Shown here: positions 13,936 through 14,585 of the stretch, piece after piece
Numbering within the stretch: the first letter of the stretch is position 1
How the letters are laid out: each line of letters starts with the position of its first letter
Source of the DNA: Octopus vulgaris
Lineage: Eukaryota
Assembly: GCA_951406725.2 (NCBI GenBank)
Contig: OX597817.1
Coordinates: forward strand, 171,740,001-171,804,000
Direction: 5' to 3'
Length of the DNA stretch: 64,000 nucleotides
The notes under the pieces: model-generated
Database searches by the model: none
What the model saw: the letters and a program-made list of their open reading frames with translations, nothing else
What the model was told of the DNA's origin: nothing
Made by a program: the position numbers and the translations under genes

Positions 13936-14585
13936 AGGCATGGTTGTGTGGTAAGAAGCTTGCTTCCCAAGCACATGGTTTCAGGTTCAGTCCCATTGTG
14001 TGGCACCTTGGGCAAGTGTCTTCTACTATAGCCTCAGGCTTCCCAAAACCTTGTGAGTGGATTTAGTTGAAGGAAACTGAAAAATCCCATCATATATATA
14101 TATATATAAATTAAATTAATCAAAATAAAAACATGATGCCAAGAATTCAGCGGTACATATGTTTCGGGCTTTTATTAGAAGGATTTATAACAATGCATAA
14201 TGTGTGTCTATGGCCTTCTTCAGCCGCGCACAATTACTACTTCAAGGACATGTATCACATCATAAATTCTACGTTGGGGATGCAAATCCTCACAGTCACG
14301 TACGACATAGTGGGGCACCAGCACAAAAATGAAGCGTCCATCTCGTCTTTCACTCAATGTATATATACAGGTGCTTACAATTATCAAGTACTCACCCTGG
14401 ATTTTTATATATATATATATATATATATATATATATTTGTGTGTTTATGTCTGTGTTTGACACCACCCCCATCGCTTGACAACTGATGTTGGTGTGTTTA
14501 CATCCGTGTAACCTAGCAGTTTGGCAAAAAGAGACTGATAGAATAAATACCAGGCTTACAAAGAATAAGTCCAGGGGTCGATTTC
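13936..14585 (+). mobile_element. SINE family A split by an insertion in its internal (TA)n
   Basis: Head at 13936-14092 and body at 14438-14585 match family A; unrelated sequence at 14108-14406 lies between two TA runs. Confidence 0.85.
14150..14227 (-). ncRNA. Minimal type I hammerhead ribozyme candidate
   Basis: Minus strand reads GCGG-CUGAAGA-AGGC...GCCC-GAAA-CAUAUG-UA/CCGC. Stem I GCGG:CCGC, stem II GGC:GCC with a long loop, palindromic stem III ACAUAUGU, GUA cleavage triplet. Confidence 0.75.

Follow-up and report, generated by a model that had tools for sequence, protein, structure and literature searches.

The window, a 64-kb stretch of Octopus vulgaris DNA, contains a SINE-like repeat (here called the SINE) that is split within its internal (TA)n tract by an insert of about 300 bp, and the minus strand of this insert carries a candidate type I hammerhead ribozyme (Table 1). 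An (AT) array of 84.5 units (13770-13936) lies directly before the SINE.

Table 1. Features of the insert and of the SINE that holds it, in window positions.
Feature	Positions	Strand	Basis or detail
Host SINE, 5' part	13937..14091	+	15 other matches in the window
Left part of the internal (TA)n tract of the SINE (target)	14092..14108	.	Sequence; other SINE copies
Three bases that separate the TA run from the family sequence	14109..14111	.	Alignment of family contigs begins at 14112
Segment A, 5'-truncated, tail-less 3' part with ribozyme	14112..14361	-	Family contigs
Type I hammerhead motif	14150..14227	-	Stem I 14227-14224/14153-14150; core 14223-14217 (C3-A9 box CUGAAGA) and 14165-14162 (GAAA box)
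Palindromic helix III	14155..14162	-	Monomer, 2 pairs and tetraloop; dimer, 8-pair duplex
Long helix II	14166..14216	-	Tiers 14215-14212/14170-14167, 14210-14205/14181-14176 and 14200-14196/14189-14185; majority letters, predicted
Segment B, final 44-45 nt of the 3' tail, in inverse orientation to A	14362..14405	+	Family contigs
Right part of the (TA)n target	14406..14436	.	TA run adjoining the insert
Host SINE, 3' part	14437..14585	+	Matches 3' parts of other copies

The host SINE and the age of the insert

In nine of nine other copies of the SINE printed, only a short TA/TG tract stands between the 5' and 3' parts, and no second copy of the insert was found in the 64-kb window. The placement given by the initial annotation, inside the TA tract of a SINE and with both ends merging into TA repeats, is borne out by these insert-free copies, by the match of both SINE halves to them and by the TA runs that adjoin the insert on either side. 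We take the 5' part of the SINE to be a tRNA-like head, with A-box-like and B-box-like motifs; ARAGORN called no tRNA in the SINEs. Copies of the SINE, each with an internal TA/TG microsatellite, lie at 9480-9840, 11641-12030, 16710-17080, 31425-31800, 34330-34650, 35755-36110, 40225-40590, 42105-42470 and 44590-44920, and a microsatellite of this kind in every copy makes the SINE family a standing target for TA-seeking elements.

The insert holds 9 CpG dinucleotides (o/e 0.85), a count of at least 9 being reached in 7 of the 214 tiles of the window, against 3 (o/e 0.20) in the host SINE, whose head differs by 12.5% from the consensus of eight other window copies. For its part, the insert has the minority letter of its family at 14 of 298 sites (4.7%, partly a subfamily difference). 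By these measures it is younger than the SINE that holds it but not fresh, and the relative youth first read from its retained CpGs stands with that qualification.

Architecture of the insert and its family

Twenty of the 24 public sequencing runs listed (four organisms, 10 studies) contain part of the insert, each with at most 32% of its words. In the four runs compared, X1, X2, X8 and X12 (organisms A, B, D and B), 1616, 596, 262 and 32 contigs fit, numbers that mark the insert as belonging to a multi-copy family; contig depth was not taken as copy number.

Among the loose ends listed, contigs leave the window sequence after 14361 in all four runs (7, 11, 6 and 3 contigs) and enter it at 14362, again in all four (10, 4, 7 and 1 contigs), and none of the 32 pieces listed of 2518 bridges 14361|14362. 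As judged from these contigs, the insert is two pieces with opposite-facing 3' ends, joined back to back at 14361|14362, and not the single 300-bp unit first described. In relatives, an AC-rich linker of 25 nt precedes 14362 (10, 4, 7 and 1 contigs, among the loose ends listed), its reverse complement precedes 14112 in one X12 contig, and a 30-letter loose end in X1 and X12 begins with the reverse complement of 14112-14116, an overlap of five letters. Since the linker lies upstream of segment B and its reverse complement before 14112, we infer A, linker, B as the original arrangement along the ribozyme strand, the direct join of A to the linker coming from one contig and the five-letter overlap. 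The linker is absent from the whole 64-kb window, where B lies on the 5' side of A in inverse orientation.

In further copies, the family sequence gives way to TA-rich letters at 14112-14119 (10, 5 and 6 contigs in X1, X2 and X8; three of the four runs), contig depth runs on into TA after B, and an X1 contig has A (14179) fused to B (14376) in the same inverted layout with other breakpoints. Each 3' end would therefore abut the TA target, one of them carrying a tail of ~70 nt and the other tail-less; the hammerhead ends ~40 nt before the inner 3' end and ~110 nt before the tail end. Two independent insertions into one TA tract, or a chance fusion there, of a piece with the hammerhead and the 45-nt end of some unrelated repeat would account for a junction that falls within an 8-nt TA run (14360-14367), which could be left-over target, and for the presence of B next to other linkers. 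We hold this to be improbable, as in relatives both pieces contain the TA letters themselves (alignment of A up to 14361, of B from 14362), B is connected to A through the linker, and a second inverted A-B join exists.

A reading as a terminal-inverted-repeat element (MITE) was rejected: there is no inverted repeat beyond the TA runs, and the A|B junction is not the usual form of the family. A hairpin in segment B has a z-score of -0.9, which gives no evidence of structure. In X1, X2 and X8 we also observe a joint from 14361 to 14323 with three letters between (depth 622, 1645 and 47), which may reflect an internal repeat (~39 nt) that lies upstream of A, or else a further inversion. At the loose ends 14127, 14237, 14265 and 14363-14364, related families share the ribozyme or B and differ elsewhere, which suggests several families with one 3' end, in which ribozyme and B are common and linkers and upstream sequence differ.

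The hammerhead motif and its predicted fold

Read from the sequence, the minus strand from 14227 to 14150 is a type I hammerhead motif, with the CUGANGA and GAAA boxes, U16.1-H17 and three helices in type I order. Stem I consists of four Watson-Crick pairs, and the self-complementary ACAUAUGU (14162-14155) is followed by A17 (14154) and the predicted cut at 14154|14153, the position that the initial annotation had given. The boxes and the perfect 4-bp stem I were likewise located as it claimed, as was the orientation antisense to the SINE, with the ribozyme on the minus and the SINE on the plus strand. Its term "minimal" does not hold: minimal hammerheads lack helix III and have a helix II of 7-8 bp, whereas here two helix III pairs are present and the core halves are separated by a helix II of 51 nt, predicted with majority letters to form three tiers of 4, 6 and 5 pairs.

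A type I descriptor yields this one match on both strands of the 64-kb window, and thus no second motif, against a mean of 0.08 matches in 200 locally shuffled windows (0.03 with short stem III). Rfam gave no match at gathering score in the 64-kb window; around the locus, its 21 matches up to E 10 include no hammerhead. A scan with an 18-nt motif found no locus in viral sequences and three loci in metagenomes, which are put down to chance because each lacks the first core box in its upstream 80 nt.

Across the four runs, none of the 35 positions of the core and inner stems (14150-14169 and 14213-14227) is variable at the 5% level or above, compared with 33 of 215 in the rest of 14112-14361, clustered at 14228-14330. 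The motif is thus conserved across family copies, as had been expected of it. The Fisher test of 0/35 against 33/215 gives a p of 0.005, which is inflated because the variable sites cluster, and as 14331-14406 is also invariant (0 of 76), invariance alone proves little for a ribozyme. No two-sided covariation is seen in the per-site data, which hold one change of the G-C to G-U type, at 14212.

Within the motif, the window copy departs from the family majority at 14170 (96-100% of depth), 14180 (~100%) and 14181 (53-73%), and it lacks the helix II pairs at these positions. All three majority letters are predicted to restore a helix II pair, the majority letters being combined from separate short contigs of runs that hold at most 32% of the words of the insert, possibly from other species. 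In the isolated 78-nt motif of the window copy, the core is predicted to pair with loop II (probability 0.98), and the hammerhead conformation lies 6.1 kcal/mol above the predicted minimum, or 10.8-11.3 kcal/mol with flanks. Once 14170 and 14180 carry the majority letters, the isolated motif is predicted to have the hammerhead as its minimum-energy fold, with a stem I probability of 0.83, an outcome reached by 11 of 8127 double changes in the 43 positions taken as control. Window copy and majority version would thereby form a natural pair of misfolded and folded sequences. With flanks, the predicted gap by which the hammerhead of the majority version exceeds the minimum is 0.7-3.1 kcal/mol at 37 C and reaches up to 5.5-6.9 kcal/mol at 20 C; this version may therefore also need co-transcriptional folding, a partner or a protein. 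Two registers can be drawn at the base of helix II, A.C with four pairs (-13.2 kcal/mol) and an extra A with G10.1-C11.1 and a bulge (-9.8 kcal/mol); the G10.1-C11.1 pair forms only with the bulge, and the A.C register is predicted to be 3.4 kcal/mol lower.

Chance resemblance to a hammerhead would fit with the lack of an Rfam match, with unremarkable folding z-scores and with the 3-8% of shuffled windows that yield a descriptor match. We find it scarcely credible, given that core and stems are invariant in the family, that majority letters restore pairs, against 11 of 8127 double changes in the control, and that the motif lies near the 3' end of a TA-targeted repeat.

Helix III is predicted at +2.4 kcal/mol as a hairpin and at -7.0 kcal/mol as an intermolecular duplex, which agrees with the proposal that this self-complementary stem suits dimers. 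From these energies dimer cleavage is plausible for the family; the window locus is without a partner motif. The implied competence of the window copy as a ribozyme did not survive the folding predictions: with its orientation antisense to the SINE, no partner nearby and pairs missing from helix II, the copy is probably silent and inactive. The intact core boxes, stem I and cleavage triplet would speak for a ribozyme that is still active, or used by the host, to cut antisense or intronic transcripts. Such a role is very improbable in view of the predicted decoy helix that joins the core to loop II (pairing probability 0.97-0.99) and the energy gap of 6-11 kcal/mol, of the window without a partner motif and of the fact that no host gene was identified. 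Eight of nine predicted Xenopus dimers, moreover, showed no cleavage, according to a recent preprint (bioRxiv 10.64898/2026.07.22.740005).

A probable relation to Penelope-like elements

We consider it probable that the insert stems from a Penelope-like element (PLE), whose 3' end it would preserve in truncated and inverted form, or else from a non-coding element that a PLE mobilised, the window copy probably being a dead, 5'-truncated PLE or PLE-dependent copy. PLE copies are described as having an inverted 5'-truncated copy at their 5' end and a tail of 30-40 bp at one end only, with (TA)n targets in Naiad and Hydra and probably in Neptune (PMC8557442). Their hammerheads have a short helix I, a long helix II, an extra base after A9 and a palindromic helix III, are of low activity even as dimers, and occur in truncated PLE ends by the thousands per animal genome (PMC4209133). 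On structure and target, the insert appears to show the same class features, namely the inverted 5'-truncated copy with a tail at one end (subject to the A-linker join from one contig), the hammerhead in the 3' terminal (pLTR) region and, as in Neptune, Naiad and Hydra, a (TA)n target, seen in the window copy and in the loose ends of three of the four runs. Against an origin from a PLE stand the tail of ~70 nt, which exceeds the 30-40 nt described, the absence of a linked RT or GIY-YIG gene (open frame of A, 92 ORFs and eight motifs searched), the single contig and five-letter overlap behind the direct A-linker join, and the other linkers that precede B in other contigs, on account of which B may be a module common to several families. 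The energy gap of the majority version with flanks, the invariance of 14331-14406 outside the ribozyme, the lack of two-sided covariation and the possibly foreign source of the majority letters weigh on the same side.

In the anole PLE, the protein acts on AT-rich DNA, where it cuts both strands and extends them, and two internal RT start sites with an AC-rich stem loop define the tail (PMC11167929). By analogy, an RT-endonuclease would have nicked both strands of the TA tract of the SINE; cDNA would have been primed at two RNA sites, an inner one just 5' of the AC-rich stretch, giving A (250 nt), and an outer one at the tail end, giving B (45 nt), and both cDNAs would have stopped early and then joined at short TA runs. 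The insert would thus be a compact record of PLE integration, with two cDNA starts, a back-to-back join and a TA target. In the family, the hammerhead would most likely act on the precursor RNA, with cleavage after GUA that is weak in the monomer and improves in a dimer or with the aid of a protein; the anole hammerhead cuts only with protein and is dispensable for insertion in vitro (PMC11167929).

The motif shares with the pLTR hammerheads of metazoan PLEs (especially the Drosophila virilis-type variants, which have a palindromic helix III; Cervera and de la Pena, 2014, PMC4209133) the type I order with a 4-bp helix I, the extra base after A9, the enlarged helix II, the palindromic helix III and the occurrence mostly as solo copies from truncated elements, and differs from them by a helix II of 51 nt in three tiers, against 6-8 bp there, and by a best predicted register with A.C in place of G10.1-C11.1. 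In common with Hydra-clade PLEs, including Hydra-1_Obim (Craig et al., 2021, PMC8557442, Files S1 and S2), it has the (TA)n target, the hammerhead near the 3' end, cleavage after A, which is common there, a similar helix III and a mismatch at the base of helix II (U.U, and C.A in PLE-X1_cBra, both among the PLE motifs listed in File S2), whereas Hydra-1_oBim has a different motif sequence and an 8-nt loop II. The Naiad "HHR_half_core" cases (Naiad_Ovul and Naiad_Esco; PMC8557442) likewise have core halves far apart (35-50 nt, against 51 nt here), (TA)n targets and cephalopod hosts; in contrast to them, all three stems can be drawn here, and no motif matched the Naiad consensus file. Poseidon from Anolis carolinensis (PAc; Frangieh et al., 2024, PMC11167929) is similar in its two 3' ends, with and without tail, its AT-rich target, the AC-rich stretch at the inner end and the hammerhead upstream, but its tail is 30-40 nt (~70 nt here) and its ORF starts inside the ribozyme, whereas no ORF link was found here.

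The insert could also be a solo monomer of a non-LTR retrozyme, a non-coding unit of 170-400 nt that usually occurs in head-to-tail arrays and is hammerhead-cut and circularised. Animal non-LTR retrozymes resemble it in their length of ~300 nt, low GC, type I motif and lack of coding sequence (PMC7229834; bioRxiv 10.64898/2026.07.22.740005), and retrozymes, which commonly occur as solo monomers, originate from PLE pLTRs (bioRxiv 10.64898/2026.07.22.740005); here, too, several families have the ribozyme and 3' end in common and differ upstream. We nevertheless think this unlikely, because retrozymes consist of tandem units, each with a motif, and form circular RNA, whereas there is one motif in 64 kb at this locus, and the insert is made of two opposite pieces and not of a unit-length monomer; that no end-to-start joint is listed among the contigs weighs little, as the unit would exceed the stretch examined. 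The retrozyme explanation overlaps with an origin by way of a PLE, because a PLE-dependent element leaves the same scars.

Searches for a parent of the presumed PLE end covered longer proteins, the window and the published consensus files; in PLE clades the endonuclease is C-terminal (Neptune, Hydra and Poseidon) or N-terminal (Naiad). The open frame of A (46 residues) has no match among longer proteins and no Pfam match, and was rejected as coding; RT and GIY-YIG Pfam families are absent from the 92 ORFs. Eight family motifs gave no match in the consensus files for Naiad, Chlamys and Hydra (PMC8557442) on the sense strand, where line breaks could hide one, and with the same proviso identity with Naiad_Obim, Naiad_Ovul or Hydra-1_Obim was rejected. 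In relatives, the sequence upstream of A consists of 30-letter loose ends. PLEs make up 6.83% of the O. vulgaris assembly, in 190 families (supplement of PMC13282606, the available main text of which has no mention of ribozymes), and the family may therefore already be annotated among them.

A more speculative proposal, which we regard as doubtful, is that the hammerhead of the family works, as a variant whose helix II of 51 nt has three tiers and an A.C pair at the base and which escapes Rfam and descriptors with short spacers. It would stand ahead of a 45-nt 3' module common to several families with different spacers, in which this module would be the landing site of one PLE enzyme. If the parent were of Naiad type, the Naiad "half-core" motifs would prove to be genuine ribozymes, contrary to the view that Naiads lack them. 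The locus itself matters little, PLE-end hammerheads being abundant in animal genomes; it points to a family of hammerheads with long helix II that descriptors miss. Lunse et al. have reportedly described dimeric PLE hammerheads, and their alignments may include the window motif.

Elsewhere in the window, two near-identical 3' fragments of a LINE ORF with weak similarity to DUF6451 (10103-10804 and 51817-52353) are, we assume, RTE-like, and two ORF pieces without Pfam match (53514-53873 and 58102-58440) presumably resemble the C-termini of CR1-type LINEs. The window also holds a 1.3-kb (AAT)n array (24593-25932), a 51/106-bp tandem repeat (23284-23672) and, in a repeat fragment beside a TA array, a 51-bp inverted repeat that is 98% complementary with a 9-nt loop (46985-47095), a strong hairpin and possibly a fold-back insertion.
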